A DNA stretch of 32,000 nt from positions 3,240,001 to 3,272,000 of the forward strand of contig NC_008312.1 in assembly GCF_000014265.1 (NCBI RefSeq), written 5' to 3'. Shown here piece by piece: positions 1-30,847 of the stretch (within the stretch, counting starts at the first letter, position 1; each line of letters begins with the position of its first letter). The stretch comes from Trichodesmium erythraeum IMS101 (lineage in GTDB: Bacteria; Cyanobacteriota; Cyanobacteriia; Cyanobacteriales; Microcoleaceae). Position numbers and translations under genes: made by a program. The notes under the pieces were generated by a model. The model was not told the origin of the DNA and did not search any database. It worked only from the letters and a program-made list of their open reading frames with translations.

Positions 1-1135
1 CAATTAGGTCAAAAAACTTAGTTAGTTCAGAAAGTTTATTTAGTTTAATTCCTACGGTTTTATTTAGCCCTAATTCATAATCATCTGTGTGATAAAAATC
101 TACCACATTACCTTGATTAGAGTTTAAATTTTCCCATTTTCTTTGCCAAGCTCCCCCTAAATCTTGAGCTGTATATTTTAACCTTTCAGCTAAACGAAAA
201 GTAACAATATATTGCTTACACATTTTTGCAGGACGGTTGAGCTTTGTTACCTCCAGCCAATCAAAATAAGAGTTACTTTCTATAAGCAAATTAGTATCTA
301 AAAATAACTCTATCCTCAAGTCTTTACTGCCAATTTTTTTCATTCTCTTATTGGATTCGTCTATCAGTTCTGTTAATTTTTTAGATAGATATTCCCGTTC
401 AATCAAGTCTTTTTCTTGAATATTACGGATTAATTGACTAGACCAAAACCAACTTTGTATTTGTAAAGAACTATAATTCTTTTTCTTAAGCTCAATCAAC
501 AAATAAGATTCTAGTAACTTGGGATTTTGGGTATCAGGTGAAGATTTTCTAAAATTTGGTGTTGCTGTTTCCTTAAACTCAGAATATCCAAAAAAATTAC
601 CGTATTCTTCTAGCCATTTATCTAGGGTTTTTTGTAGATTTGAATCAGAAACTTGTTGTTGAATTCCTACTACAAATGGAATAATAAGCCGATATTTTTT
701 TAGGGGAATAATACGATTTAGTTGAGTCAAAATATCATCAATATTCTTAACTGTTTTATCTGCCATTTCAGGGCGACATGATAAGTATATTTTTTCTAAT
801 TTTTCAAAAGATTGATTCTGTAAATACTCTCCCAAATCATTAATTGCTTTATCTTCTTTATTCCTAGAACCCGATAAGTTTGTCTGTTCTTGTCTGTCAG
901 TCTCAAACTCATTAAAAGCCTTAGGATTGATTTCTTGAATTTCATTTAGTAAATCATCTATTTTTTCGTGTTTATCAATATAATCAAATAAAATTCGGAA
1001 TCTTTGATTTTTACTTTGTCCATTTATAAATTGGCTATAAACATCATGAAAGCTATAAAAAACTAAATCTTCAAATTCGTCTGGTCCTAGAGCTTTGTTA
1101 ATTAAATTCCGAATAAGTTTAAGATCATATTTCAT
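1..1135 (-). CDS. Effector-associated (death-like) domain protein, C-terminus beyond the window edge; the body is possibly a VMAP-C-like module
   Basis: The minus-strand frame is open from the ATG at 1135-1133 to position 1. It is absent from the ORF track because no stop lies in the window. The first ~80 aa (MKYDLKLIRNLINKALGPDEFEDLVFYSFHDVYSQFINGQSKNQRFRILFDYIDKHEKIDDLLNEIQEINPKAFNEF) align position by position with the N-terminus of the adjacent 661-aa ORF. The remainder (..DLRIELFLDTNLL..DWLEV..IVTFRLAERL..GAWQRKWENL) resembles VMAP-C-type modules from memory only. Confidence 0.6.
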   Translation of the reverse strand, partial: MKYDLKLIRNLINKALGPDEFEDLVFYSFHDVYSQFINGQSKNQRFRILFDYIDKHEKIDDLLNEIQEINPKAFNEFETDRQEQTNLSGSRNKEDKAINDLGEYLQNQSFEKLEKIYLSCRPEMADKTVKNIDDILTQLNRIIPLKKYRLIIPFVVGIQQQVSDSNLQKTLDKWLEEYGNFFGYSEFKETATPNFRKSSPDTQNPKLLESYLLIELKKKNYSSLQIQSWFWSSQLIRNIQEKDLIEREYLSKKLTELIDESNKRMKKIGSKDLRIELFLDTNLLIESNSYFDWLEVTKLNRPAKMCKQYIVTFRLAERLKYTAQDLGGAWQRKWENLNSNQGNVVDFYHTDDYELGLNKTVGIKLNKLSELTKFFDLI

Positions 1136-1213: not shown

Positions 1214-3199
1214 TTACTGCCGCATAATCCAATAACCCCCCTCTTCCGACGGTTCTAACCGACCTCTTCGCTGCCCTGGGGAAGTATTATTAATTAATAA
1301 GTCCCGTATATCTTCAAGTACCAAACGAGCATCAGCAAAATAACCATGTCCTAATAAAGTTAAATCTATCTTAGAAACTTTTACCGTGTCTATTCCTTCT
1401 ACAACAGTAACAGGGGGGAAAAAACCAGCTCGGCCATGCTGATGAATAAGCGCTGAAGTTGCTAAGGCTTTGTCTTTTGATGATATGTATAATGTAGTTC
1501 GTTCTGCTAATTGATGATATCCTTTAGCTAACTCTTTAAACAAGTCAATATCTACATCTGGAGCGGCTAAAATAATTTGCCCAAAAGCAATATTAGTTAT
1601 TGTTTGAACTTGAGAAATAATTCTTTGGACTGCTCTGAGTAAACCTCGGTTTCCCATACTATGAGCAATAATATGAATTTTCTCAATGTCCGTTTTTTCG
1701 GCTAGGTTGAGTAAAAATTCTGTCATGTACTTTTCGCTGGCTTCAATACTTGCCTCGTCTACCGGATATGCTGATAATTTCCCTTGAGATGGCCAACTAT
1801 AAAAGGCTGTAATTCCTGGCACTTGCAGGTCAAACCCCATTTGTGCGGCTCTAATAGCTGCATCTTCAAAATTGACGTTGTATCCATGAACAAAGACTAA
1901 AGCAGACCTTTCATTTATTTCATGGTCTTTTAATTCTTCGTTGATATTTTCCCAAAATAGTTCTTTTTCCAGAATTTGCAAACTTTGAAAATGTAGTTTG
2001 AGGCGATCGTCTTTGAAAGTAATTAATCTTTTCCACAAAGGGGAACCTATAGAGCCTATTTTATGAGATTTAGGAACAGCTACTTGACAAATACCATAGT
2101 GAAGTTTGTCATCTCTTTTTCCGGAAAAACCTTTGGATATATTATTTGTATCTACAGGTTTTCTGTTGGTACCAAACCATAAAGGATATATAGTTGCTGT
2201 TGTTTCTTTAGTATCTTTTAAAATCAGAGATCTTTTGACTTTTACGGTTTCTTTTTTCTTTATTGCTTTCTTTGTTACGGCTTCTTTTGAAGTCAAATAA
2301 CCGTTGGTTTGATGACTTCTTAAACTGACAGTTTCTGACTCTAATAATGATGTATCAAAAGGAATAAAATGAGGAATTGGACTATCAGGTAATCTTAAGC
2401 GTTCAATTCCATTTATACCTAGTTGAAAAGCTTGATAATAGCTCCTTTGATATGCTAAACCTTGATAAAATTCTTCGGCAAATATCAAAGCAGAATCATC
2501 ACCAATCTCTTTTTTCATGCCAATAACACAACCTACCTGGTGAGCGACTGCATCAGCTTTTTTCAGAGAAAAACAGGCATTAAATACAACACATTCTATA
2601 GGTTTTCCATCTTTTCTAACAATAGATAATAATTCTGATAATGTTTCGAGGGATAAAACCTCTGCCTCACCTTGACGGTTGTTTAAAATTATTTCACCTT
2701 GAGAATTACCATGACCGCTAAAGTGAAGAATTCTAGGCTCATATTTCAGCAAATATTGAGATAAATCTTCTATAAAAGCATTTTCTTCTCCATAAACAAT
2801 ATAATTTTTTCCAAATTCTGTCTGCTGTAGTTTTTCCCTAATTAATTCAGTTTCTTTTTTTAATTGTAGTGGCTGTGTAGTTGTAGGGTTTGCTGCTAAA
2901 ACCAAAACATCACATTTTTCAATTGGAGGCGGAGGGGGATTTTCTCCTAATTTTGACTCATACTCTTGATAAACTTTTGGATTAATATTTTTAATGCCTT
3001 CAAGTAACCGCTCAATTTCTCTATGTTTGTCAGCATATTCAATTAAAATTCTGACTCTTTGCTTTTTATTTTGTCCATTTGTAAATTGGTTATAAACATC
3101 AGGAAAATAATCATAAACTAAGTCGTTAAATTCTTCTTCGGGTAGATCTTGATTAAGTAATTCCCGAATGACTTTTCTGAGTCTGAAATTATATAACAT
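1214..3199 (-). CDS. Three-module effector protein: N-terminal effector-associated domain, CHAT (caspase-fold) protease, and C-terminal DUF900-type alpha/beta hydrolase
   Basis: 661-aa ORF. Residues 1-85 form the EAD-like helical domain, followed by a PPPPP linker. The CHAT dyad context is ILHFSGHG (His163, nt 2711-2713) and VVFNAC (Cys209). The C-terminal half has VFVHGYN, the nucleophile elbow AHSMG (Ser514), AAPDVD and LLGHGY, which is typical of the DUF900 esterase/lipase family. Confidence 0.85.
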   Translation of the reverse strand: MLYNFRLRKVIRELLNQDLPEEEFNDLVYDYFPDVYNQFTNGQNKKQRVRILIEYADKHREIERLLEGIKNINPKVYQEYESKLGENPPPPPIEKCDVLVLAANPTTTQPLQLKKETELIREKLQQTEFGKNYIVYGEENAFIEDLSQYLLKYEPRILHFSGHGNSQGEIILNNRQGEAEVLSLETLSELLSIVRKDGKPIECVVFNACFSLKKADAVAHQVGCVIGMKKEIGDDSALIFAEEFYQGLAYQRSYYQAFQLGINGIERLRLPDSPIPHFIPFDTSLLESETVSLRSHQTNGYLTSKEAVTKKAIKKKETVKVKRSLILKDTKETTATIYPLWFGTNRKPVDTNNISKGFSGKRDDKLHYGICQVAVPKSHKIGSIGSPLWKRLITFKDDRLKLHFQSLQILEKELFWENINEELKDHEINERSALVFVHGYNVNFEDAAIRAAQMGFDLQVPGITAFYSWPSQGKLSAYPVDEASIEASEKYMTEFLLNLAEKTDIEKIHIIAHSMGNRGLLRAVQRIISQVQTITNIAFGQIILAAPDVDIDLFKELAKGYHQLAERTTLYISSKDKALATSALIHQHGRAGFFPPVTVVEGIDTVKVSKIDLTLLGHGYFADARLVLEDIRDLLINNTSPGQRRGRLEPSEEGGYWIMRQ

Positions 3200-3631: not shown

Positions 3632-3793
3632 GTCCCTGTACCTATTTCCTGTGACTAAGGTCTAAGTATTTAGGGGGATGTGATATCAGTTGAGAGCATC
3701 AATAAGTTTAAACTTGACATCATACTCCACGTTACATTACAAAAATTACTGCTTCATTGCTTTCAGCGTAATACATTGTAGTATTGCATGATG

Positions 3794-3822
3794 GCAAAAA
3801 ATTTCGACTCGCCAAAGGCGAG
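3794..3822 (-). terminator. Putative intrinsic terminator of the orthocaspase gene
   Basis: On the minus strand a GC-rich 6-bp stem (ctcgcc ttt ggcgag, 3808-3822) is followed by tcgaaatttttt. It lies ~35 nt downstream of the stop and after a gggcaaaa tandem octamer (3831-3857). Confidence 0.4.
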
Positions 3823-3856
3823 GCTAAATAGGGCAAAAGGGCAAAAGAGCAAAGGG

Positions 3857-5767
3857 CTATTCAGGAGTCCTGGGGGGGAAACTCACAAGACGAAAACCAA
3901 AATTGGAGCTGACCACCACGACCGAGACATAGTAGCCGCGGCTCGCAGAGCGACACCACCCAGGATAGTTGAGCCAGGAGCCGCCACGAAGCACTCTACC
4001 GCTACTATCGCCTCCATTTACCCAAGCACTTCCATCAACAGGTGCTCCATCATAATTACTATGCACAACATCCTGACACCACTCCCAGACATTCCCATGC
4101 ATGTCATATAGACCAAAAGCATTAGGTGGAAACTCACCTACAGGAGTTGTTTGTTCTCTATATTCTCCTTTTGGTTCATCAGCATAAGTCTCTGAAGCTC
4201 TATAATTAGCTAATTCTCCTGTGATAGTTTCTCCAAAATAAAAAGGTGTAGTTGTCCCAGCACGACAGGCATATTCCCATTCTGCTTCACTCGGTAGTCT
4301 ATAGTCTCTTCCTGTTTTCTTAGAGAGCTTTTGACAAAATTCTGTAGCGTTATTCCAACTTACTCTTTCCACAGGGCGATTTTTTCCTTTAAATTTCGAA
4401 GGATCATTTCCCATTATTGCTTGCCACTGTTGTTGAGTAACGACATACTTTCCCATCCAAAATTCTGGCACATCTACATGATGTTGCGGACCTTCATTAT
4501 CACTTCTCTGTGCTTCCGTCTCTGGAGACCCCATCAGAAAACTACCACCGGGTATTTTTACCATTTCCAGAGTAACTCCATTACCTAAATTTTCTATCAT
4601 TACTTCTGCTTCACCTTCAGAGCGGCTTATTATTTCTCCTTTCCTGTTAACTTTAGGAGTCGCAAATGTATGAATAGTAATTTTTGGCTGTGACTTTGTT
4701 TTTATTTGTGAGTTTGGTTCTAACTTCCGTTGTGACTGTAGTGAAGTTTGAATATTTGAACCTTCTAATACTTCTGTTGATCTTGGTTGTTGAGTTTCTG
4801 AAACCGGTAAATTCTGAAAATAACCTAGATCTAACTGTGGGGTGGAAACCAACTGAGATCTAAACCGATCAACAGCAATTTTCTGCAGAGCCTTAACTGC
4901 TTCAAGATCCAAACCTACCTCTAAAACTCTTATCCATAGTTGTTCTGCCCAATTAAAATCTCCATTTGTTTGAGCTCTGTAAGCGTCAATTTTCAGAGTA
5001 GAAACATCAGTTTTTGTTGCATACTTCGGCATTAAAATTAAATGAGACTTTTCAATAGGGTCAGCAATAATACGAGGGGTCTGTCGTTTTCCTTCCTTTT
5101 GAGCTAGCTCTTGCACCCGATACTTCAGATATTCATTCAGTCTTTCTGCAGTTGCTTTTTGACCCTTACTACCTAACCCCTCTAATAACGCATAAGTAAA
5201 AACTCCCTGTTGCAACTCTTCTAATTCCCAAGAACGTTCATTTGGACTACAAGAAAAAATAGTTACTATCCCCTTTTCACGAGCTTCTTGTTCTGTTTGC
5301 CTTCCTAGTCCTTCTCCCCCTTTTCCCCCATCACTTTTGTTTCTACAAGCATCCAATATTAGAACTATATTATCTGCTCCAGATTTTTGCAGTTGTTGAA
5401 TAATATAGTCAACAGAAATTCCACTTCTTTCAACATTTGAATGACCATCAATAGGAATTAAATAATCAATATTATTATTCTCTCTATGACCATGGCCGCT
5501 AAAAAAAAACCAAAGGTTATCACCAGTTTTCAGAGATAGTTTTTTAACTTCATCTTCTAACACCAATTCTAAGCGGGAACGAGTTGGGCGAGTTGAAGCA
5601 CCATTAATTTTTGGAGAATTATCTGACAAGTAAAAAACGTCATCAAAATCTGCTTCGTCGAGCAAAAAATCCCTCATTTTTTTAGCGTCATTAGCTGCAT
5701 ATTTTAGAGGAGTCAAAAACTCATATTCCTGAACTCCTATAGTAATTGCTATATTTTGATTGGTCAT
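3857..5767 (-). CDS. Orthocaspase (peptidase C14) fused to a C-terminal FGE-sulfatase / C-type-lectin-fold domain
   Basis: 636-aa ORF. The caspase dyad context is WFFFSGHGH (His92) and LILDACRN (Cys141). The C-terminal ~270 aa carry FGE-family motifs (IPGGSFLMGSP, VDVPEFWMGKYVVTQQQW, RLPSEAEWEYACRAGT, GLYDMHGNVWEWC, RVLRGGSW, GFRLV). Confidence 0.9.
   Translation of the reverse strand: MTNQNIAITIGVQEYEFLTPLKYAANDAKKMRDFLLDEADFDDVFYLSDNSPKINGASTRPTRSRLELVLEDEVKKLSLKTGDNLWFFFSGHGHRENNNIDYLIPIDGHSNVERSGISVDYIIQQLQKSGADNIVLILDACRNKSDGGKGGEGLGRQTEQEAREKGIVTIFSCSPNERSWELEELQQGVFTYALLEGLGSKGQKATAERLNEYLKYRVQELAQKEGKRQTPRIIADPIEKSHLILMPKYATKTDVSTLKIDAYRAQTNGDFNWAEQLWIRVLEVGLDLEAVKALQKIAVDRFRSQLVSTPQLDLGYFQNLPVSETQQPRSTEVLEGSNIQTSLQSQRKLEPNSQIKTKSQPKITIHTFATPKVNRKGEIISRSEGEAEVMIENLGNGVTLEMVKIPGGSFLMGSPETEAQRSDNEGPQHHVDVPEFWMGKYVVTQQQWQAIMGNDPSKFKGKNRPVERVSWNNATEFCQKLSKKTGRDYRLPSEAEWEYACRAGTTTPFYFGETITGELANYRASETYADEPKGEYREQTTPVGEFPPNAFGLYDMHGNVWEWCQDVVHSNYDGAPVDGSAWVNGGDSSGRVLRGGSWLNYPGWCRSASRGYYVSVVVVSSNFGFRLVSFPPRTPE
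3899..3994 (-). other. Candidate DGR variable region (VR) at the 3' end of the orthocaspase-FGE gene
   Basis: The stretch is abruptly GC-rich and adenine-poor on the coding strand. It encodes VLRGGSWLNYPGWCRSASRGYYVSVVVVSSNFGF and is dominated by NNC/NNT codons (CTC AAC TAT AGC GGC TAC TAT GTC GTC GTC AGC TCC AAT). These sit between the invariant scaffold residues GGSW, CRSA.R and GFR. No template repeat or DGR RT is present in this window. Confidence 0.4.
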
Positions 5768-6520
5768 CGTTTCTCTGCTGTGATTTAAATTTCAACTTAG
5801 TAGCACTTTTTCCTGACAGATAATTCTGTTGAACCAGGTTAGCGATCGCTAACTCAGGTTTAACTTAAAATCAGCGATCGTACAAATTAGAAAATAAAAA
5901 TAGATTTTACTATTAATTTTATATACAAACAACCCTGTTAGATATGACATTAATAAATTATAGTAATATATTTTAAAATATTGAGTCAGGTTAACTCTAT
6001 CAATTATTTTTTTGAGAAACACAAATAACCATAATTTAATTCAAGAAAGTTGAGACTAAAAGCAATTTGAATAAATAAAAATAATTGAGTAACTCCTGAA
6101 ATTGTGCAGTTTTGTTTAATAAGTAAACTACATTTAGGATTTTTTCAGCAAAACCAGACTAACCTTGGACAAAAAGTCAGTAAATAAACTAATTTTGATC
6201 ATTCTAATATTGTAGCGGCCTCTGAAAATAGATAAGAACATAGATTAGAGTCCGGTCCAAATTATCCTTATAAACCTTTAACTAACAGAGCATTACCACC
6301 TACTTATTTATTAAGTTTTGTAAATTTAGTATTTTAGTAGTTTAGTGGTTTAGTGGTAAACAGCAAAATATAGAAAATGATAGAAACCAAAAATTATTAA
6401 GATTTAAGAAGCCAAAATCAACAGAATTAGTATTCAGATATAGTCTACTTGTTAAATTTTCAACCTGATACCTAACATCTGACATCTAAAACATGACATA
6501 TAACGCATTAGACCTCAAAC

Positions 6521-6625
6521 CTAACAGCTAAAACGGAAGAAAACCTAAAACTTAACACCTAAAACGGAAGAAAACCTAAAACGGAAGAAAACCTAAAACC
6601 ATAATAAAATCTAAAACCTAACACC
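6521..6625. repeat. Tandem/interspersed repeat block built on ctaaaac, including three copies of the 17-mer ctaaaacggaagaaaac
   Basis: The 17-mer occurs at 6528-6544, 6559-6575 and 6576-6592. Extra ctaaaac units occur at 6545-6551, 6593-6599 and 6611-6617. The block ends ~45 nt upstream of the mtnA start. Confidence 0.75.
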
Positions 6626-6668
6626 AGGGTGATATATTGTATTTACGTTCATCAAAAAACCATGGAAA

Positions 6669-7730
6669 ATGATATATAAATTCAGAAAAGTAAACCCCAT
6701 TACTTGGAAAAATGACCATGTTGTATTAATTGATCAAACTTGCTTACCAGAAGAATATAAAACAGTCGAAATTAGCAGCTATGAAGAAATGGCAGTAGCT
6801 ATCAAAACAATGATAGTTCGTGGAGCACCAGCCATCGGTGTATCAGTAGCTTATGGAATGTATTTAGGAGCAAGAGAAACTGTCACAAATGATAGAAATG
6901 AATTCTTAAAACAGCTAGAAGAAATAGCTGTAATTTTCCGAAGAACTCGCCCAACTGCTGTTAATTTATTTTGGGCAATAGAGCGAATATTAAAAGTAGC
7001 AAATAAAACTAATGGAACTGTAAAAGAAATTCAAGAAGCGGTATTAGAAACTGCTAAAAAAATTCATCAAGAAGACTTAGAAACCTGTAAAAATATAGGC
7101 GATCGCGCAGTTGAAATTTTACCAACTAAACCCGAAAAATTGAACATATTAACCCACTGTAATGCAGGAGCTTTAGCAACAGCAGGCTATGGTACAGCAT
7201 TAGGAGTTATTCGTTCCGCCTGGCGAGATGGAAGGTTAGGCAAAGTCTACGCTGATGAAACTCGTCCCCGTCTCCAAGGAGCAAAACTTACCACCTGGGA
7301 ATGTGTCCAAGAAAACATACCCGTCACCCTAATTAGCGATAACATGGCAGCCCACTGTATGAAACAAGGCTTAATTCATGCTGTAGTAGTAGGAGCTGAC
7401 AGAATAGCAGCAAATGGAGACACTGCCAATAAAATTGGTACTTATAGCCTAGCTATTGTCTCTCAAGCACATAATATTCCCTTGTATGTAGCTGCACCCC
7501 TATCAACTATAGACTTTAAAATCTCTGATGGTAGTGAAATACCCATAGAAGAAAGGGATACAAAAGAAATATATCAAGTAGGAGAAACACGCATTTGTCC
7601 AAAACAAGTAGAATTTTATAACCCGGCATTTGATGTTACACCTGCAGAACTAATTACAGGAATAATGACAGAACATGGTACAGTTCTCCCAGGAGAACTA
7701 GAACAATTTCGGGTCAAGCAGTTAGTTTAA
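6669..7730 (+). CDS. mtnA: S-methyl-5-thioribose-1-phosphate isomerase (methionine salvage)
   Basis: 353-aa ORF with the eIF-2B alpha/beta/delta-like MtnA signature: [75 protein letters not shown]. Confidence 0.9.
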
Positions 7731-8380: not shown

Positions 8381-8487
8381 AAGTTAAAAAAAATTACAAT
8401 ATAGAGCAAAAATCAATCTGTCACTTTTTAGTGCAACAATAATAGATTATTTTGCCCTTGTATTCAACTCAAACTGAGAATAATTTT

Positions 8488-8683
8488 ATGGATAAATTTC
8501 AAGTAGCAGTTATTGCTAAAACAGCAGATCCTCAACAGGTAATTTATGCAGCTTTACATCAAGATTATAGTGAAGGATTTGTATTTGATCAAAAAAATAT
8601 TTGGCCTTCAGAAACCAAATGTGGGGAAATTCTTGTTAAACGACTTTTAGTAGGCGATCGCGGACATTATGGATGTCTTGAAC
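8488..8683 (+). CDS. thyX: Flavin-dependent thymidylate synthase ThyX, exon 1
   Basis: Runs from the ATG at 8488 (MDKFQVAVIAKTADPQQVIYAALHQDYSE..GDRGHYGCLE) to the group II 5' splice site. The track ORF 8452..8709 reads through into the intron and uses an upstream TTG start. Confidence 0.8.
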
Positions 8684-9941
8684 GTGCGACTCGTTGGCCA
8701 AGAACCTAGGACAACCTAGTATAAATGGCCATCCTTAGTCAATACATGAGGATAACCTCGACTAATGGATAACTCTTATGTCCTTGGTGGTGAAATTCCA
8801 TCCGCCTTGTTGTTGGGTTGACAGCATAGGCCACAGGGTAGAGACTGAACATCAATCCCTGAAGCTGGCTTAAATGGGGTCAAAGCTTTAACTATCAAAT
8901 AAGTGAGACTTCTAGCAGAGACTAACAAGTGAACGAACAGGAAGGTAATTAAACTCTCGTAACATTCATTCATCCCAAAGATAGCTATGGGTTGTAGGCC
9001 AAAAGTCAGAGGGTCTTTGGATAATAATGTGTTCAAGCTATTATCAACAACCATACCGGATCCTCCGGGAGATTTTACCTCACTAAATTAGTCGCAATAA
9101 AGGCATAAGGGAACGAGGAAACCTCTTTAAGACACCCAAGAATATAGGTCAAAAACTTGGGAAGCCATTCAAGGTCAATCTACGCAAAGCCCGTAGGTCT
9201 TAAGGAGAGTAGGATTGGGTAAAAAAGCACAATTTATGCAGACGTACCCACTGTTAGACGTAATGTAAGGCAATAATTAGCAATAAAAAAAGCCAAAACA
9301 CTAAAAAACATTTAGGGTCACCTAAACTATTTTTAAGTGTGGCATGAAATACAAAAGATATAGGTTCCTAAAGCAGTTTTAATCCAAATTTGAAGTGGAA
9401 AAATATAAACTGGAAATTAGTCCTGAAAAATGTATTTAAGTTGTAAAAGTTAACTTACAGAGCATCCCGTTGTGGCAAACTCCGCAATATGCGTAAATAC
9501 CAAAGACTTCTGAGCAAAAGCTATTACCCTAGGCTGTTAGCTTTTAGGCACGTGACGCAAAGTTACCATAGCAGAAATAGTAAATATCCAGGGGTAAAAA
9601 AAAGAAGTCACAATACTGTCAAAGCAGCAAAAGAGTAAACATGCATCTTGTGGATTATATTTTTGACCAAGGGTATAAATTGAAACAGACCACATCGTTC
9701 CTAGGTTTGAAAGTGGTGACAACACCTATAAAAATCAACAGTTGTTGTACCAACATTGCCACAACGTTAAGACTACCAAAAATTTAAAAGCAAATTATTA
9801 GGACTCATTAAGTCCAAAGTAGAACTTTAAGGATGTGCCCTTGAATAGGGACGTTTAAGAGAGGAGCCGTGATGAGGTGAAAGTCTCACGTCCGGTTCTG
9901 AAGACAAGTCGGATCAGGTAACTTATCTGGCTTAGTTTAAC
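8684..9941 (+). mobile_element. Group II intron, ORF-less (intron-encoded protein degenerate or deleted), interrupting thyX
   Basis: The 5' end is GTGCGAC (8684-). The EBS1 candidate gttcaag (9031-9037) is exactly complementary to the last 7 exon nt, cttgaac (8677-8683). Domain V (gagccgtgatgaggtgaaagtctcacgtccggttc, 9864-9898) has the AGC triad and a GAAA loop. The 3' end is ..tttaac (AY). Removal fuses GHYGCLE|HPQITFNCGFFPHSVMQQARTHRIG in frame. The domain IV region (9192-~9560) is homologous to the IEP 5' region at 22525-22900, but ATG has become ATA and only ~0.3 kb remains before domain V. Confidence 0.85.
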
Positions 9942-11362
9942 ACCCTCAAATTACTTTTAATTGTGGATTTTTTCCCCATAGTGTTATGCAGCAAGCAAGA
10001 ACTCATAGAATAGGTTGCTGTTTGTCGGGCAATACAAAAGTTAGATTTAGGTATTCGTCTTCATCCCAAGAAGCGAAATATTATGAGGAAACAATTGAAA
10101 AATTAGCTAACTTATGGCATTACGGGAGCAAAAATCAATATACTTCTAAAGATGCAAAATGTATGCAAGAAAATATATCTAGCCGTAATATTTTTACTCT
10201 AGATACCCAAACTAACCAAATTGTTTCTAGCAAAATTACCAACATATATATTAATGGTGAAAAAGAAACTTACACAATAAAAACTGTTTCTGGTAAGGAA
10301 ATAAGAGCTACCCTAGAACACCAGTTTTGGACTAACCAAGGGTGGAAACGATTAAAAGATTTTAATAACAGCACTCAATTATGTGAAGTGCAATTAGCTG
10401 GAAATAAAGTTACTCCACAAGAAGTTAAATTTCTCGAAAAAGAAATGTTTAATGAAAAGTGGATCCCAGTAAGAAATTATGACGGATATAAAATTTATAG
10501 CTTAGATATTTTGAATTCTTACCTTATTCAAAAAGAGAATAAAGAGCATTCACGGAGCAAATCTAAAAATTGTTTACTTCCCAATTTAAATTATGGAATT
10601 AGGTATGATCGACTTTCAGAAGTAAATATAAATAGATTAGTAATGGAAAACTTGAAATTATTAGGAGAATACAAGGAACTTGAAGTCAGACATTTAAATG
10701 AGAATAGTTTTAACAACAAGCCAAAAAAATTTGCCTGGAATTCTAGCAAAAGCGACCAAATTGACAATATCAATAACAATAGTTTCTCTGATAATTCTGG
10801 TGTTTTTGTAGAGATAGAATCTATTGAAAAATTTGGCAAAGAAATTACTTATGATCTTGAAGTCGAACACCCAGAACATAATTTTATAGCCAATGGTTTA
10901 GTTGTTCATAATTCTTTCGATGTACAAAGTTATCGGTTTTGTTCGGGAAAAGTTATTGCAGTAGCAGATGGAAAAACTGATATAGAAACTGCTTTTTACT
11001 TACGTCCAGTCGGAGAATATTCTGACCGCAAAGGTAAAAAATATTATTATTCCGCCGAACAACGAGAAAAAGATTTATATTGGTGTTTAGAAGCAGCTAA
11101 GAAATACAAACTTGATATGGAACTTGGAATGTCTGAAGAACATGCCAGAGGAAAAATTCCTTTTGATTATCGTCAGCATTTTGTTGTCAGTTTTAATTGT
11201 CGTAGTTTGCTACATTTTTTAGATTTACGTTTTAAAAAGAATGCTCAATTAGAAATTCAAAAACTTTGTGAATTAATGTGGCCTCATTTTCAAGATTGGG
11301 TTCCCAATATAGCAGAATGGTATGAAAAAAATAGACTTAAAAAAGGCAAATTAGCACCTTAA
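9942..11362 (+). CDS. thyX: ThyX exon 2 (contains an in-frame intein at 10019-10912)
   Basis: The exon starts with AC, completing a His codon begun in exon 1. The extein sequence is HPQITFNCGFFPHSVMQQARTHRIGC ... SFDVQSYRF..ARGKIPFDYRQHFVVSFNCRSLLHFLDLR, matching the ThyX RHR-X7/8-S region and C-terminal motifs. Confidence 0.85.
10019..10912 (+). mobile_element. Intein (298 aa) within the ThyX signature motif, with a central HNH/NUMOD4-like homing endonuclease remnant
   Basis: Block A is CLSGNTKV at the N-terminus and block B is RATLEHQFWT. Blocks F/G are EITYDLEVEHPEHNFIANGLVVHN, followed by +1 Ser (SFDVQS). The central region EKWIPVRNYDGYKIY ... INRLVMENL ... LEVRHLNENSFNN parallels NUMOD4 + HNH_3 endonucleases. 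The N-terminal boundary could instead be one codon earlier (10016). Confidence 0.85.
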
Positions 11363-13979: not shown

Positions 13980-15836
13980 TTATTTTTCAACATCTTGAAT
14001 AGAACAAGATTCTTTTCTATTTTTATTCAAAAAGTCTCTAATTTTTATCGGAGAAGAACTTGCATCTGGAATTTTAGGATGATCTCGTTGAAACAAAGAT
14101 TCATTGTATGCTGCTTCAGTAATTTCTAACAAAGCCATAACATTTTTTTTGATATTGTTAAGCTCTTGTCTGATTTCCTCCCAGTCTAAACCTTCTTCTA
14201 TAAATATAATGAGTAAATTAATCCAACCACCCCAAAATTTTGAGTAAATAAAAGAAGTATTTCTTGTTTTATTTCTACTTTTTAAGTTATCTTCATCTCT
14301 ATTAAAAGTTGAAAAAATATAGTTAAAATAACGCTCAAATAAAGCTGTTCCTTTTTCTACTAATGTTTCTTTTTCAGATAATTTTTCTATAGTTGAATCA
14401 AATAATTTCTCATATCCATCTTTTTTTAAAAGAGTATTCCTAACTTTGGCTTTTGTTAACTGTTCGATCTTTGTAATGTTTGTAATTTTTTTAATTGCCT
14501 CAATAATTATTCCAGCATCAATAATACCTTTATTTGCTTTATCCGACGTTAGATTAAAAAATTGCTTAAAGTTTTGTCTAGTATTTAAATTGACAATAAT
14601 CTTTGTAGCAATTACTTTTGGCTCTTTACTTCCCAATTCATAAGCAATTTTATCTGTATGAGTTATTTCTACTTTTGTTTGATTCATATTGATTTCTAGA
14701 AATACTTTAGCGCTAAACTTATTAATAATTTCTTGATTCTCAGTTTTAAAATCAACTGCTGTCACCATTATTTTACAATCATTTTGCATAATTGATTTGA
14801 CCTTTTGATCCGCATAAGAAAATAATCTATGTTGACCATCAATTACAGAAATACTTCCATACTTTCTAGGAATATACAAACAACCATCGTTACGTTCGTC
14901 ATATGTACATTCTTTAGATAGAACCACCAAAATATTAGATGGGAAAATAAAATCAGGATTTGTTAATAAATTTTCCCTGATTTTTTTTAATTTATCGGGT
15001 ATTAAAGGTCTTTGATAATTATAGGTTGAACTATCCTCTAATAAAGGAAGTTCATCTTGTCTATATACACGAACTATATTTAGTATCTTGTATGGGGATA
15101 TAGTAAATGTATACAAATCTGATAAAGGTGCATCATTATCTTTTTTACTAATTTGCTTATTAGTACTTCTAATTAGTTGATGATATTTCTTATCAATTGA
15201 AATAGAAGTTTTATCTATCTCGTCATCGATTTTAAATAAATTTAAAAAATAGTTTCTAGTGTATTCTCCTATATCGTCAGAATATTCCTTTAATCTCATA
15301 TAATCTGATTTATAAAATTTAACTATATCCCTCGCTTCTGGTAAATCAATTCTGCCTTCTCCATTGCCTTCTTCTACAGTTGTAGTAATGAAAAATCCTT
15401 TAATTGACTGTATATTTCTAAATTTTCTTATATGTTCTGTTTTTATACCTAATTTTTGCCAAATATAATCGGAAAATTCTAACTTTTTAATTATATTGAT
15501 TTGATTAATAAACTTTTTATACTTTGTATTGATTTTTCCTTCATCTCTTGATGTTATTTCACCTATTAAACAAACTTTATCTATAGGTATCATGTAATCA
15601 AATTCAAGATGCTCGTTGTTTGGATATTCTGGTGCTATATCTTTTAACTGTACTTGACCTAAATCATTAAAACAATCTAATCCAATAGCTTCAAAAATAC
15701 ATTTTCCTTCTTGTTCGAGTTCTTTTCCTGATTTTCCTTGTAAAGATTTATTCATATTTTGCAATGATGTATAGCTAAAAAATCCAAAATTTATATAAAT
15801 ATAAATATAAATATTAATATTTCCTCTGTACATCAC
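13980..15836 (-). CDS. DGQHR-domain (DndB-like, ParB/sulfiredoxin-fold) protein with an unassigned ~230-aa N-terminal domain
   Basis: The three hallmark motifs are YQRPL (aa 274-278), VIDGQHRL (DGQHR = nt 14826-14840) and FLEINMNQTKV (aa 379-389). The start is uncertain. The GTG/ATG at 15836/15833 directly abuts AGGAGG but adds a low-complexity NIYIYIYI leader. The ATG at 15755 (MNKSLQGKSG) is the conservative alternative. Confidence 0.8.
   Translation of the reverse strand: MMYRGNINIYIYIYINFGFFSYTSLQNMNKSLQGKSGKELEQEGKCIFEAIGLDCFNDLGQVQLKDIAPEYPNNEHLEFDYMIPIDKVCLIGEITSRDEGKINTKYKKFINQINIIKKLEFSDYIWQKLGIKTEHIRKFRNIQSIKGFFITTTVEEGNGEGRIDLPEARDIVKFYKSDYMRLKEYSDDIGEYTRNYFLNLFKIDDEIDKTSISIDKKYHQLIRSTNKQISKKDNDAPLSDLYTFTISPYKILNIVRVYRQDELPLLEDSSTYNYQRPLIPDKLKKIRENLLTNPDFIFPSNILVVLSKECTYDERNDGCLYIPRKYGSISVIDGQHRLFSYADQKVKSIMQNDCKIMVTAVDFKTENQEIINKFSAKVFLEINMNQTKVEITHTDKIAYELGSKEPKVIATKIIVNLNTRQNFKQFFNLTSDKANKGIIDAGIIIEAIKKITNITKIEQLTKAKVRNTLLKKDGYEKLFDSTIEKLSEKETLVEKGTALFERYFNYIFSTFNRDEDNLKSRNKTRNTSFIYSKFWGGWINLLIIFIEEGLDWEEIRQELNNIKKNVMALLEITEAAYNESLFQRDHPKIPDASSSPIKIRDFLNKNRKESCSIQDVEK
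15795..15818. repeat. Hexamer microsatellite (ataaat x3 plus attaat) in the 5' leader or extension of the DGQHR gene
   Basis: Read directly: ataaat at 15795-15800, 15801-15806 and 15807-15812, then attaat at 15813-15818. Confidence 0.7.
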
Positions 15837-22524: not shown

Positions 22525-23478
22525 CGTAGGTTTTAAAGAGAGTAGGATAAGGTAAAAAGCTATCAAGCTTACCTACTCACCTTTGGACATAAAGTGAAGT
22601 AATTACTAGCAATGAAAAAGGCTAGAACACTAAAAAATAATTTTGAACACCCCAAACAATGTTTAAGGGTGGCATGGGGTTTAGACGATATTCCAAGCAA
22701 AGTATGCGTCAATCATAGTCTTAAGTGGAAGAACATTGAATGGAAAAAAATAGAAAAGTATGTGTTTAAGTTGCCAAAGTTAATTTACAGAGCTTCCAGT
22801 CCTGACGAAATCTGCTTTTCGGCGCAAATACTAAAAACTTCTGAGCAAAAACTATTACTCAAGATTGCTTGCTGGCTGTGACGCACGTGAACAACCAGGG
22901 TAAGACAACTGTGGGAGTAGATGGAATTAAAGACCTAACTTCTATGCAGTAGCTCAACCTAGTTAATAGATTGAAAAGGTTTCACCACAGACTGAAAAAA
23001 AACCGCAGAGTTTGGATATTTCAACCAGGTAAGGATGAAAAACCAGCACTAGGCATACCAGCTATGGAGGATAGAGCGTTATAAATCTTAGTAAAAAGGA
23101 TTTCAACTTGTTGAGGGAAGCACTTTTGAACTGAATAGCTATGGTCTTTTCCGGAGCTCAATACATGATGCTATCCAAACTATCTTTTAGGGCATATCCA
23201 CAATATTTAAGTATAGCATATTTCGGATATATAAGGTATAGGCTAAATAGTAACAATTATGTAGTGCGGGCATATTGCCCGCATTAGCATAACTCATAAC
23301 AAGGTCAAGCGCTGTATGTTCTGGATACTGACATAGCAAAATGTTTTGAGCAGATTAGCCATGAAGCGTTATTGAAGAAAATAGGGGATACACTATATAG
23401 GCTATTGATTAAACAGTGGTTAAAGTCTGGGGTTATGGATAAGCAAAAACTGACCGAAGGCACACTATAAGGAAGATT
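22525..23478 (+). pseudogene. Dead group II intron fragment: domain IV start plus the N-terminal half of the reverse transcriptase/maturase, with stops, frameshifts and a repeat insertion
   Basis: It is homologous to thyX-intron positions 9192-~9560. The track ORF 22612-22881 is the IEP N-terminus. Downstream broken frames read ..NQGKTTVGVDGIKD.., ..VWIFQPGKDEKPALGIPAMEDRAL*.. and ..LDTDIAKCFEQISHEALLKKIG..IKQWLKSGVMDKQKLTEGTL* (RT0-RT4). Domains I-III and V-VI are absent. The fragment is truncated next to the slt stop. Confidence 0.75.
23255..23283. repeat. Small palindromic dispersed repeat inserted in the RT pseudogene
   Basis: The sequence is aattatgtagtgcgggcatattgcccgca. The first 19 nt are identical to 3421-3439. 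There is a perfect hairpin tgcgggca-tat-tgcccgca (23265-23283). It sits between RT motif fragments. Confidence 0.6.
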
Positions 23479-29948: not shown

Positions 29949-30473
29949 TTATGCTAATATAAAAGATCGAATTCTTAGTCGCACTAAACCACATATTGTT
30001 AAGATTACTTTTTGATAATTATTATCTTTTAATCTGAATCTTTCTCTAGCAATTCCAAATATTTTAATTAATCTTATTACATGTTCTACAAATATTCTCT
30101 TTCTGGCTTTTTCTTGATTTTCTTCTTTGATTTCTAGCGGCATTTCTTTTTTTCTTGGTTTCTTTTTTGGTGTAGTAGTTCTTTCTACTCCTTCATAAGC
30201 TTTATCTCCTTGAAATTTTTGTTTTTTATCAAATTTATCCTGTTGTTTTCTTAATATTTTTACATCACTTACTGGACCTTTTTCTCCTACTATTACATCT
30301 ACTATTTCTGTTCCTTTTGGTGTCGTTATTATTTGATTTTTAAAAGTATGATTTTTATTTTTTCCTGAGTAATATTTTTCTTGGTCTTTATATTCACTTG
30401 GTCTTTCTCTACTTTGTTCTGTACTATCTACAATTAATTCTAATTCTGTTAATATCTCCTTTACCCATTCCAA
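29949..30473 (-). CDS. IS transposase orfB (DDE catalytic part)
   Basis: 174 aa; LIVDSTEQ..ERP..YYSGKNKNHTFKNQ..GDKAY..RIFVEHVIRLIKIFGIARERFR is the DDE_Tnp_4/IS5-type catalytic core. It overlaps orfA at the A12 tract in a different frame. Confidence 0.8.
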   Translation of the reverse strand: MEWVKEILTELELIVDSTEQSRERPSEYKDQEKYYSGKNKNHTFKNQIITTPKGTEIVDVIVGEKGPVSDVKILRKQQDKFDKKQKFQGDKAYEGVERTTTPKKKPRKKEMPLEIKEENQEKARKRIFVEHVIRLIKIFGIARERFRLKDNNYQKVILTICGLVRLRIRSFILA

Positions 30474-30847
30474 TTCATTTTCTTTTTTTTTTTTACTTGT
30501 TCTAATAAACTTGCTGGCAGTAATTCTCTGAGAATATCTATCCAGTAATGAAAAATATTATTAGCACTTGATTCACTTATACCAAAGTTAATTCCTAATG
30601 TTTGAAAAGTCGGTATTTGATGTAAATAAAATAACGTTAAAATTATTTCTTCCTCCTTTGTTAAATTCTTTTTTCTGACTCCACCTGCTTTAATTAATCT
30701 TTTTTCTGTTTTAGCGATCGCCTTCTTTTTCTCTGATTCTATTATTTGGGCCTTTGCTATTAATTTTATTAGCTGTTCATAAGTAATGCCAATAATTCTT
30801 TTTGTTTCTTTTGGATGGTTATAAATATATTCTAAAGTTGGATTCAT
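30461..30847 (-). CDS. IS transposase orfA (HTH_Tnp_4-like DNA-binding part)
   Basis: 128 aa; ..LTLFYLHQIPTFQTLGINFGISESSANNIFHYWIDILRELLP.. is typical of the helix-turn-helix N-terminus of IS5/Harbinger-type transposases. It ends in KKKKK, encoded by the A12 run (30483-30494). Confidence 0.8.
   Translation of the reverse strand: MNPTLEYIYNHPKETKRIIGITYEQLIKLIAKAQIIESEKKKAIAKTEKRLIKAGGVRKKNLTKEEEIILTLFYLHQIPTFQTLGINFGISESSANNIFHYWIDILRELLPASLLEQVKKKKKMNWNG

Follow-up and report, generated by a model that had tools for sequence, protein, structure and literature searches.

The closest described systems to the locus analysed here are the diversity-generating retroelements (DGRs) of cyanobacteria, and the locus itself already belongs to that record. 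Pfreundt et al. 2014 (Sci Rep 4:6187; PMC4143802) present Tery_2077 of Trichodesmium erythraeum IMS101 as the caspase-domain target among 12 variable regions. These are aligned there to a 265-nt template RNA (transcription start site 2632789r) encoded downstream of the reverse transcriptase (RT) Tery_1728/1729. The IMS101 template, as described there, holds 17 codons with 26 adenines and a 35-bp 3′ homology region; the RT is pseudogenised by a premature stop, and resequencing of all variable regions is reported there to have revealed no change. Judged by locus tags, this template lies ∼0.5 Mb from Tery_2077. Vallota-Eastman et al. 2020 (BMC Genomics 21:664; PMC7517822) list the protein, ABG51318.1, as ‘CLec & Peptidase (RVP)’ (Tables S1 and S3), CLec standing for the C-type-lectin fold and RVP for remote variable protein. 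They also record a second IMS101 RT, Tery_1035 / ABG50407.1, annotated as intact, and the Tery_1035 row of their Table S1 contains ABG51318.1 together with the other remote targets. The two papers thus assign the remote targets to different cassettes, Tery_1728/1729 (PMC4143802) versus Tery_1035 (PMC7517822). More recently, Dore et al. 2024 (PNAS; PMC10907252) described DGR-diversified putative antigen sensors in the conflict systems of multicellular bacteria, together with the VMAP/MoxR association of cyanobacterial targets. The present analysis concerns a window of 32,000 nt from IMS101 (the whole stretch of DNA analysed; contig NC_008312.1, positions 3,240,001 to 3,272,000) that contains Tery_2077. 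An earlier note, made from the letters of this window without database searches, had proposed that the C-terminus of the encoded protein is the variable region of a remote DGR target. Template comparison, natural diversity and both papers (PMC4143802, PMC7517822) support that proposal: the region matches a family of templates, differs from them in an adenine-specific pattern, and is diversified between strains. That Tery_2077 is a DGR target is already known, having been published in 2014 and 2020; we hold it to be almost certain that positions 3872-3984 of the minus strand are a genuine DGR variable region at the 3′ end of this orthocaspase-CLec gene.

Target gene and variable region

The features on which the argument turns are the following, all within or at the end of Tery_2077.

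3857-5767, minus strand: Tery_2077, orthocaspase-CLec fusion of 636 amino acids (open reading frame (ORF) 100% identical to P0001 = ABG51318.1 / WP_011611689.1)
5063-5755, minus strand: Peptidase_C14 (caspase-like) domain, residues 5-235 (Pfam PF00656, E=2.9e-26)
3884-4567, minus strand: FGE-sulfatase / C-type-lectin-fold domain, residues 401-628 (Pfam PF03781, E=1.7e-58)
3872-3984, minus strand: variable region, a template-homologous tract of 113 nt (blastn, 81% identical to the environmental template L014:189-301)
3901-3973, minus strand: stretch containing the mutable sites that derive from adenines (17 codons and 26 adenines in the template; 9 of these adenines are retained in the window allele)
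3864-3898, minus strand: invariant 3′ homology stretch GGTTTTCGTCTTGTGAGTTTCCCCCCCAGGACTCC, resembling an initiation of mutagenic homing element and including the C7 run (alignment)

The C14 domain carries His (SGHG) and Cys (DACR) motifs, read from the translation, and with this predicted catalytic pair Tery_2077 is classed as an orthocaspase. A Pfam scan of the protein finds neither an EAD nor a vWA domain. The FGE/CLec-fold domain matches TvpA (PDB 2Y3C) at the sequence level (E=2.7e-27). The variable region forms the C-terminal end of this domain and stops 13 nt before the stop codon of the frame, whose C-terminus reads ...RGGSWLNYPGWCRSASRGYYVSVVVVSSNFGFRLVSFPPRTPE*. The window allele reads LNYPGW / S / GYYVSVVVVSSNF, with Val at all three D/E/D positions of the template.

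Comparison with the template repeat

No template lies near the target. A scan of both strands of the window, with mismatches allowed only at the A of the copy, returned just the variable region itself, and no reverse transcriptase gene is found among the ORFs of the 32 kb; the target was therefore rightly called remote in the earlier note. A scan of a genome collection with the scaffold pattern yielded six more variable regions in metagenome-assembled genomes (MAGs; MAG_R02 and MAG_R03) and no template. Two metagenome scans, for which the core of the inferred template and the 3′ homology stretch served as queries, were empty, as was a scan of viral contigs for the template. The contigs around five CLec paralogues contained a group II intron RT and ordinary neighbours only, with no RT/template cassette, and a cluster look-up for Tery_1727 and Tery_1731 gave no match.

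The template was recovered at the protein level. A template inferred from the variable regions was translated and used as the query, a route chosen on the assumption that gene callers would predict spurious ORFs across templates. This query matched two ORFs, P0282 and P0286, of the form MGQANSGSW-NNY-P-RR-CRSA/G-N-R-NNYN-S-DEAD-NNN-I-GFRLVSFPP: both start with MGQANSGSW and continue with NNYPRRCRSA(G)NRNNYNSDEADNNNIGFRLVSFPP, after which they leave the target sequence. P0286 is encoded on L014, a Trichodesmium-type environmental contig of 593 nt that carries the template DNA at 191-301, between the end of a short ORF upstream and the start of a CLec-only gene downstream. The template reads GGCTCCTGG AAC AAC TAT CCT AGG AGG TGT CGC TCT GGG AAC CGC and continues directly with AAC AAC TAT AAT TCC GAC GAG GCG GAC AAC AAC AAT ATT GGTTTTCGTCTTGTGAGTTTCCCCCCC. 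Homology of L014 with every variable region is confined to 189-301/313 (blastn). With its 17 A-containing codons and 26 adenines, the L014 template reproduces the numbers published for the IMS101 template (PMC4143802).

Aligned with this template, window positions 3982-3872 mismatch at 17 of the 27 adenines and at only 4 of the 84 other positions (Fisher P=7e-10). The check named in the earlier note, a search for a repeat matching the target except at adenines, thus finds a matching family. For three of the four mismatches outside adenines, the base that differs from L014 is found in every or almost every variable region, so that these changes are private to the L014 copy; one of them is confirmed by P0282, which has Ala where L014 has Gly. 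The same adenine bias is present in 11 of 13 other variable regions at P<=5e-4 (from MAG_R01/R02/R03, one further MAG and metagenome contigs), the exceptions being L009:3413, which contains an insertion (P=0.005), and the MAG_R01 orthologue of Tery_2077, which is nearly unmutated. The template also settles a caveat of the earlier note, that several G-ending codons of the window (GGG, TGG, TCG, GTG, GTG) are not explained by AAY templates: the corresponding template codons are AGG, AGG, TCG/TCC, GAG and GCG/ACG, and thus already end in G. Thr (ACG) and Ala (GCG) occur with roughly the same frequency at codon 3916-3914, which requires template alleles with ACG as well as GCG.

In MAG_R01, the variable region at L001:11780-11900 has only four adenine-site differences from the template. 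Homing may have taken place very recently there; alternatively, the MAG consensus may have collapsed a diverse population towards the template-like base.

Composition and 3′ flank

The signals by which the region had been picked out of the raw letters hold up on counting. The 72 coding-strand nucleotides from CTC to AAT (3973-3902), for which about 9 A had been noted, contain exactly 9, against 34.4% A in the gene upstream (binomial P=2.3e-5); on the same strand of the 32 kb, equally A-poor 72-nt stretches occur at one other place only, the tandem repeat 6502-6634. The described switch to G/C-ending codons is seen as a G+C content at third codon positions of 0.68 in the RGGSW..GFR codons versus 0.22 in the rest of the gene. 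The scaffold GGSW, CRSA.R and GFR, described as retained, is invariant among homologues. Both the G7 run at 3872-3878 of the plus strand, which is C7 on the coding strand, and the GC hairpin at 3808-3822 lie exactly where they had been placed. Two claims needed adjusting. The excess of NNC/NNT codons is real, with the count corrected from 13 to 14 of the 19 non-scaffold codons, and the repeat-matching segment was correctly located with shifted bounds: it had been given as 3880-3997, and the template-matching tract spans 3872-3984, with adenine-derived sites at 3901-3973.

Two side observations concern these same stretches. The tandem repeats (∼31 nt, AACCTAAAACGGAAGAAA...) extend over 6463-6634, upstream of mtnA (IF-2B family, 6669-7730). 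A 107-residue ORF at 3788-4111 of the plus strand runs antisense to the variable region without support of its own; it is most probably spurious, since the complement of the A-poor variable region is rich in G/C and poor in stop codons.

Two further features lie between the stop codon and a T run.

3823-3856, minus strand: 3′ untranslated region (UTR) with CCCTTTGCTC, two TTTTGCCC copies and TATTTAGC (15 variable-region flanks aligned; common to unrelated target genes)
3808-3822, minus strand: GC hairpin CTCGCC-TTT-GGCGAG (CTCGCC-AAA-GGCGAG on the plus strand), with a T6 run (3796-3801) 6 nt further

The 35-nt invariant stretch is identical in the window, L001-L007, L011 and L013. The template shares it as far as C7+AG, and template and target diverge right after. 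Within it, GGTTTTCGTCTTGTGAGTTTCCCCCCCAG is identical in the template-derived ORF P0282, the variable regions and the L014 template, in which the C run is longer. The conserved target 3′ UTR is not present downstream of the template, the L014 flank being different. The hairpin is likewise kept in most variable-region flanks and is without a counterpart in the template flank; in L007, L011, L012 and L013 its place is taken by an alternative stem, TTCCCGC/GCGGGAA. It lies ∼50 nt from the C run and before a T run, and may for that reason simply be a terminator; this role and that of a DGR recognition element are equally possible. A simple terminator scan did not call the 3808-3822 hairpin, because the T run begins 6 nt past the stem.

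Diversity among orthologues and other targets

Comparison with the syntenic orthologue in Trichodesmium sp. MAG_R01 (L001) localises the diversification sharply. The two alleles differ at 59 positions over the 1911-nt gene, with 23 differences concentrated in the 100 nt of 3901-4000 and 36 spread over the remaining 1811 nt (Fisher P=8e-16, odds ratio 14.7). Each of the 23 falls at codon position 1 or 2, and those outside the segment split 10/12/14 over the three positions. The orthologue carries an A that is absent from the window at 16 of these 23 sites, and the flanks, the whole 3′ UTR included, are identical. Protein searches covering other strains and metagenomes extend this picture: among 65 same-length homologues, the last 63 residues form 57 unique peptides, with an entropy of 2-3 bits at the positions listed in the earlier note and zero at G-W, CRSA.R and G.R. 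The strain comparison proposed in that note thus shows the segment to be diversified, both in L001 and in the 57 peptides. Positions templated by AAC carry N, Y, F, S, D, I, L, V, G, C, H, T, A and R, all of which can be reached from AAY by changing the first two bases; a single Glu at alignment position 48 is the exception.

A set of further variable regions was assembled with the scaffold-codon pattern (the six from MAG_R02 and MAG_R03) and from contig look-ups. They terminate unrelated genes, namely kinase-CLec, CLec-only and others with different N-termini, and have the 35 nt GGTTTTCGTCTTGTGAGTTTCCCCCCCAGGACTCC in common; the 3′ UTR containing TTTTGCCC repeats, the GC hairpin and the T run are also found in most of them. 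In the 12 gap-free variable regions (3973-3901), the variable columns lie at codon positions 1 and 2, three singletons excepted. A is among the bases seen at all variable columns but two, and occurs in only 3 of the 88 invariant columns.

A second hypervariable C-terminal family, CRSA.R....RR.......GFRLVCDGGRTL, is found in Trichodesmium-like kinase-CLec and caspase-CLec proteins (P0010-P0023, of which P0014 = Tery_4351, and others). It has another 3′ end, likely with a G run in place of the C run, and its members are probably targets of a second DGR cassette.

Variation also extends slightly upstream of the tract shared with the template.

3989-4000, minus strand: two further hypervariable codons, residue 590 (3998-4000) and residue 593 (3989-3991) (entropy, 57 variants)

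These two codons have an entropy of 2.7 bits each among the 57 variants and are as variable as the positions of the variable region; the window and L001 differ there at 3999 and 3991. The environmental template has no homology 5′ of (A/G)GCGGCTCCTGG.

Evaluation of alternative explanations

Several points weigh against Tery_2077 carrying a genuine DGR variable region or against the function proposed for it. One non-adenine difference lies on the side of the window, at 3915 (T, where the templates have C); L007 and L012 share the T, and it may therefore reflect a template variant. The protein of T. erythraeum GBRTRLIN201 (P0002) has an identical variable region, which has thus not turned over in that lineage. 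Codons 3998-4000 and 3989-3991, both hypervariable, fall outside the template homology in both template copies (P0282 and P0286/L014). For these, homing in wild Trichodesmium may reach beyond the homology of template and target, through a longer template allele or a mutagenic 5′ junction, or the intact Tery_1035 cassette may write the same targets in trans; we give these explanations only a small chance. No DGR reverse transcriptase was seen in this analysis, in which the L014 template is preceded only by the end of a 23-residue ORF. The compared template comes from an environmental contig and not from IMS101, so that the linkage of Tery_2077 to the IMS101 template and RT rests on the literature. 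Finally, the function as a sensor joined to a protease is read from domains and neighbours only.

Three rival accounts bear on the same evidence. According to one, the region is a decayed former variable region that even an intact RT could no longer target and that evolves as ordinary coding sequence. Five of the 12 variable regions have non-adenine mutations and are probably no longer targets, according to PMC4143802; the difference at 3915 and the allele shared by IMS101 and GBRTRLIN201 would fit. However, the 35-nt 3′ stretch, the 3′ UTR and the hairpin are intact and identical to those of the most variable loci, whereas the clearly decayed L005:2600 and L009:1087 look different (altered C run, GFRLV-codon substitutions or insertions). 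The orthologues of Tery_2077 are, moreover, highly diversified in nature, and the T at 3915 recurs in two other loci and may belong to a template variant. Decay is therefore an unlikely account of this allele. A little less probable still is that the Tery_1035 cassette, annotated as intact, services the variable region in place of Tery_1728/1729 and could remain active in the sequenced strain. The Table S1 row listing ABG51318.1 with other remote targets speaks for it (PMC7517822), but this listing may be per genome rather than per cassette. In PMC4143802, all 12 variable regions including that of Tery_2077 were aligned to the Tery_1728/1729 template and remained unchanged on resequencing, and the GFRLVCDGGRTL family (e.g. 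Tery_4351) offers the natural candidate for the second cassette.

The remaining account dispenses with a retroelement and invokes diversifying selection or gene conversion among 27 CLec paralogues, a notion made attractive by the many paralogues with near-identical 3′ ends and by the two hypervariable codons outside the template homology. It fails on the codon pattern: across the 12 variable regions the third position is invariant, whereas as many as four bases occur at positions 1 and 2, A is nearly absent from the invariant columns (3 in 88), and the residue repertoire fits AAY recoding. There is, in addition, a non-coding copy in which the variable sites are A. The codon-position pattern and the template comparison refute this explanation for practical purposes, and we regard its chance of being correct as negligible.

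Genomic context and other features of the window

The genes directly downstream of Tery_2077 are of conflict-system type.

1214-3199, minus strand: EAD7-CHAT-DUF900 (alpha/beta hydrolase) gene, of conflict-system effector type, downstream neighbour (Pfam; same order in L001)
2-1135, minus strand: EAD7-VMAP-M1-VMAP-C (vWA-MoxR-associated) gene, next neighbour, cut by the window edge (Pfam)

In MAG_R01, locus L001 continues with the full EAD7-VMAP gene and then an AAA_5 MoxR-like ATPase. Taken together, these genes point to a VMAP/MoxR-type conflict system directly downstream of the DGR target. The N-terminal EAD7 domains of the two downstream genes are paralogous and visible as a repeat (902-1120 versus 2957-3175, 73% identical).

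Elsewhere in the window, thyX (Thy1; 8452-11362, plus strand) is split twice: exon 1, from 8452, is followed by a group II intron, of which Rfam recognises domain V/VI at 9862-9941, and exon 2 (9986-11362) contains an intein. In PMC4143802 a thymidylate synthase is one of the listed hosts of introns that splice actively. Direct repeats at 9192-9542 and 22525-22873, 70-88% identical and 13.3 kb apart, look like copies or remnants of one group II intron family; a short ORF at 22612-22881, which matches RVT_N weakly, overlaps the second repeat. A 618-residue DndB-domain (DNA-sulfur-modification-associated) protein is encoded at 13980-15836 on the minus strand, with synteny kept in MAG_R01. An insertion sequence element at 29949-30847 (minus strand) has its transposase divided between two ORFs, HTH_Tnp_4 and DDE_Tnp_4, with a 13-nt overlap, which suggests a frameshift or a pseudogene.

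Proposed mechanism and comparison with known systems

By analogy with the established DGR mechanism, the template repeat elsewhere in the genome would be transcribed, and a DGR reverse transcriptase would copy the template RNA into cDNA with misincorporation opposite template adenines. The invariant 3′ homology (GGTTTTCGTCTTGTGAGTTTCCCCCCCAG...) would then guide this cDNA to its target, where it would take the place of the variable region. In this way as many as 17 codons for the ligand-binding surface of the CLec domain could be rewritten, with the GGSW / CRSA.R / GFR scaffold kept fixed. Given the pseudogenised RT and the absence of change on resequencing, the IMS101 allele is frozen, an outcome of past homing. 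Judging from domains and neighbours, the diversified CLec domain may act as a sensor fused to a caspase-type protease effector. With EAD7, CHAT and VMAP genes adjacent, the probable role of Tery_2077, predicted from gene content, is in a signalling system for conflict or cell death.

As a discovery this adds little, the element, its template and the target gene having been published. It illustrates, however, that a DGR target can be called from raw sequence by adenine depletion, a switch in codon usage, a retained scaffold and a G/C run. Tery_2077 is also a clean case of a hypermutable ligand-binding domain placed on a caspase-type protease beside EAD/CHAT/VMAP genes.

Among characterised systems, the DGR of Bordetella phage BPP-1 (Mtd / TR / Brt), the reference for the mechanism, shows the same adenine-specific differences between template and target. 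There, too, a CLec-fold gene has the target at its 3′ end, the 3′ stretch is invariant and rich in GC, and a hairpin lies downstream. Unlike in BPP-1, the Tery_2077 target is remote from its template and one of a dozen, no Avd was seen in the analysis of Tery_2077, and the hairpin, ∼50 nt beyond the C run and with a T run after it, may have no role beyond termination. TvpA (Treponema denticola variable protein 1) resembles Tery_2077 in its FGE-type CLec fold with a C-terminal variable region. However, it is without a protease domain, whereas Tery_2077 has an N-terminal caspase domain and no evident signal peptide. The combination of a caspase domain with a C-terminal CLec variable region recurs in the cyanobacterial CLec remote variable proteins (PMC7517822), a class described there as common in filamentous cyanobacteria. 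The closest match is the published IMS101 DGR, which is the same element and gene: its 17 codons, 26 adenines and 35-bp 3′ homology, as given in PMC4143802, match the recovered template.

The systems of Dore et al. 2024 (PMC10907252) combine a CLec target with caspase-like effectors, EAD adapters, VMAP and MoxR, and the Tery_2077 locus, with its EAD7-CHAT-DUF900 and EAD7-VMAP genes, is built in a similar manner. Unlike those systems, Tery_2077 itself is without a Pfam EAD or vWA domain, and its tie to these neighbours is suggested by gene position. Tery_2077 thus agrees with the present picture of multicellular cyanobacteria, in which intracellular sensors belonging to immune-like or cell-death pathways are diversified.

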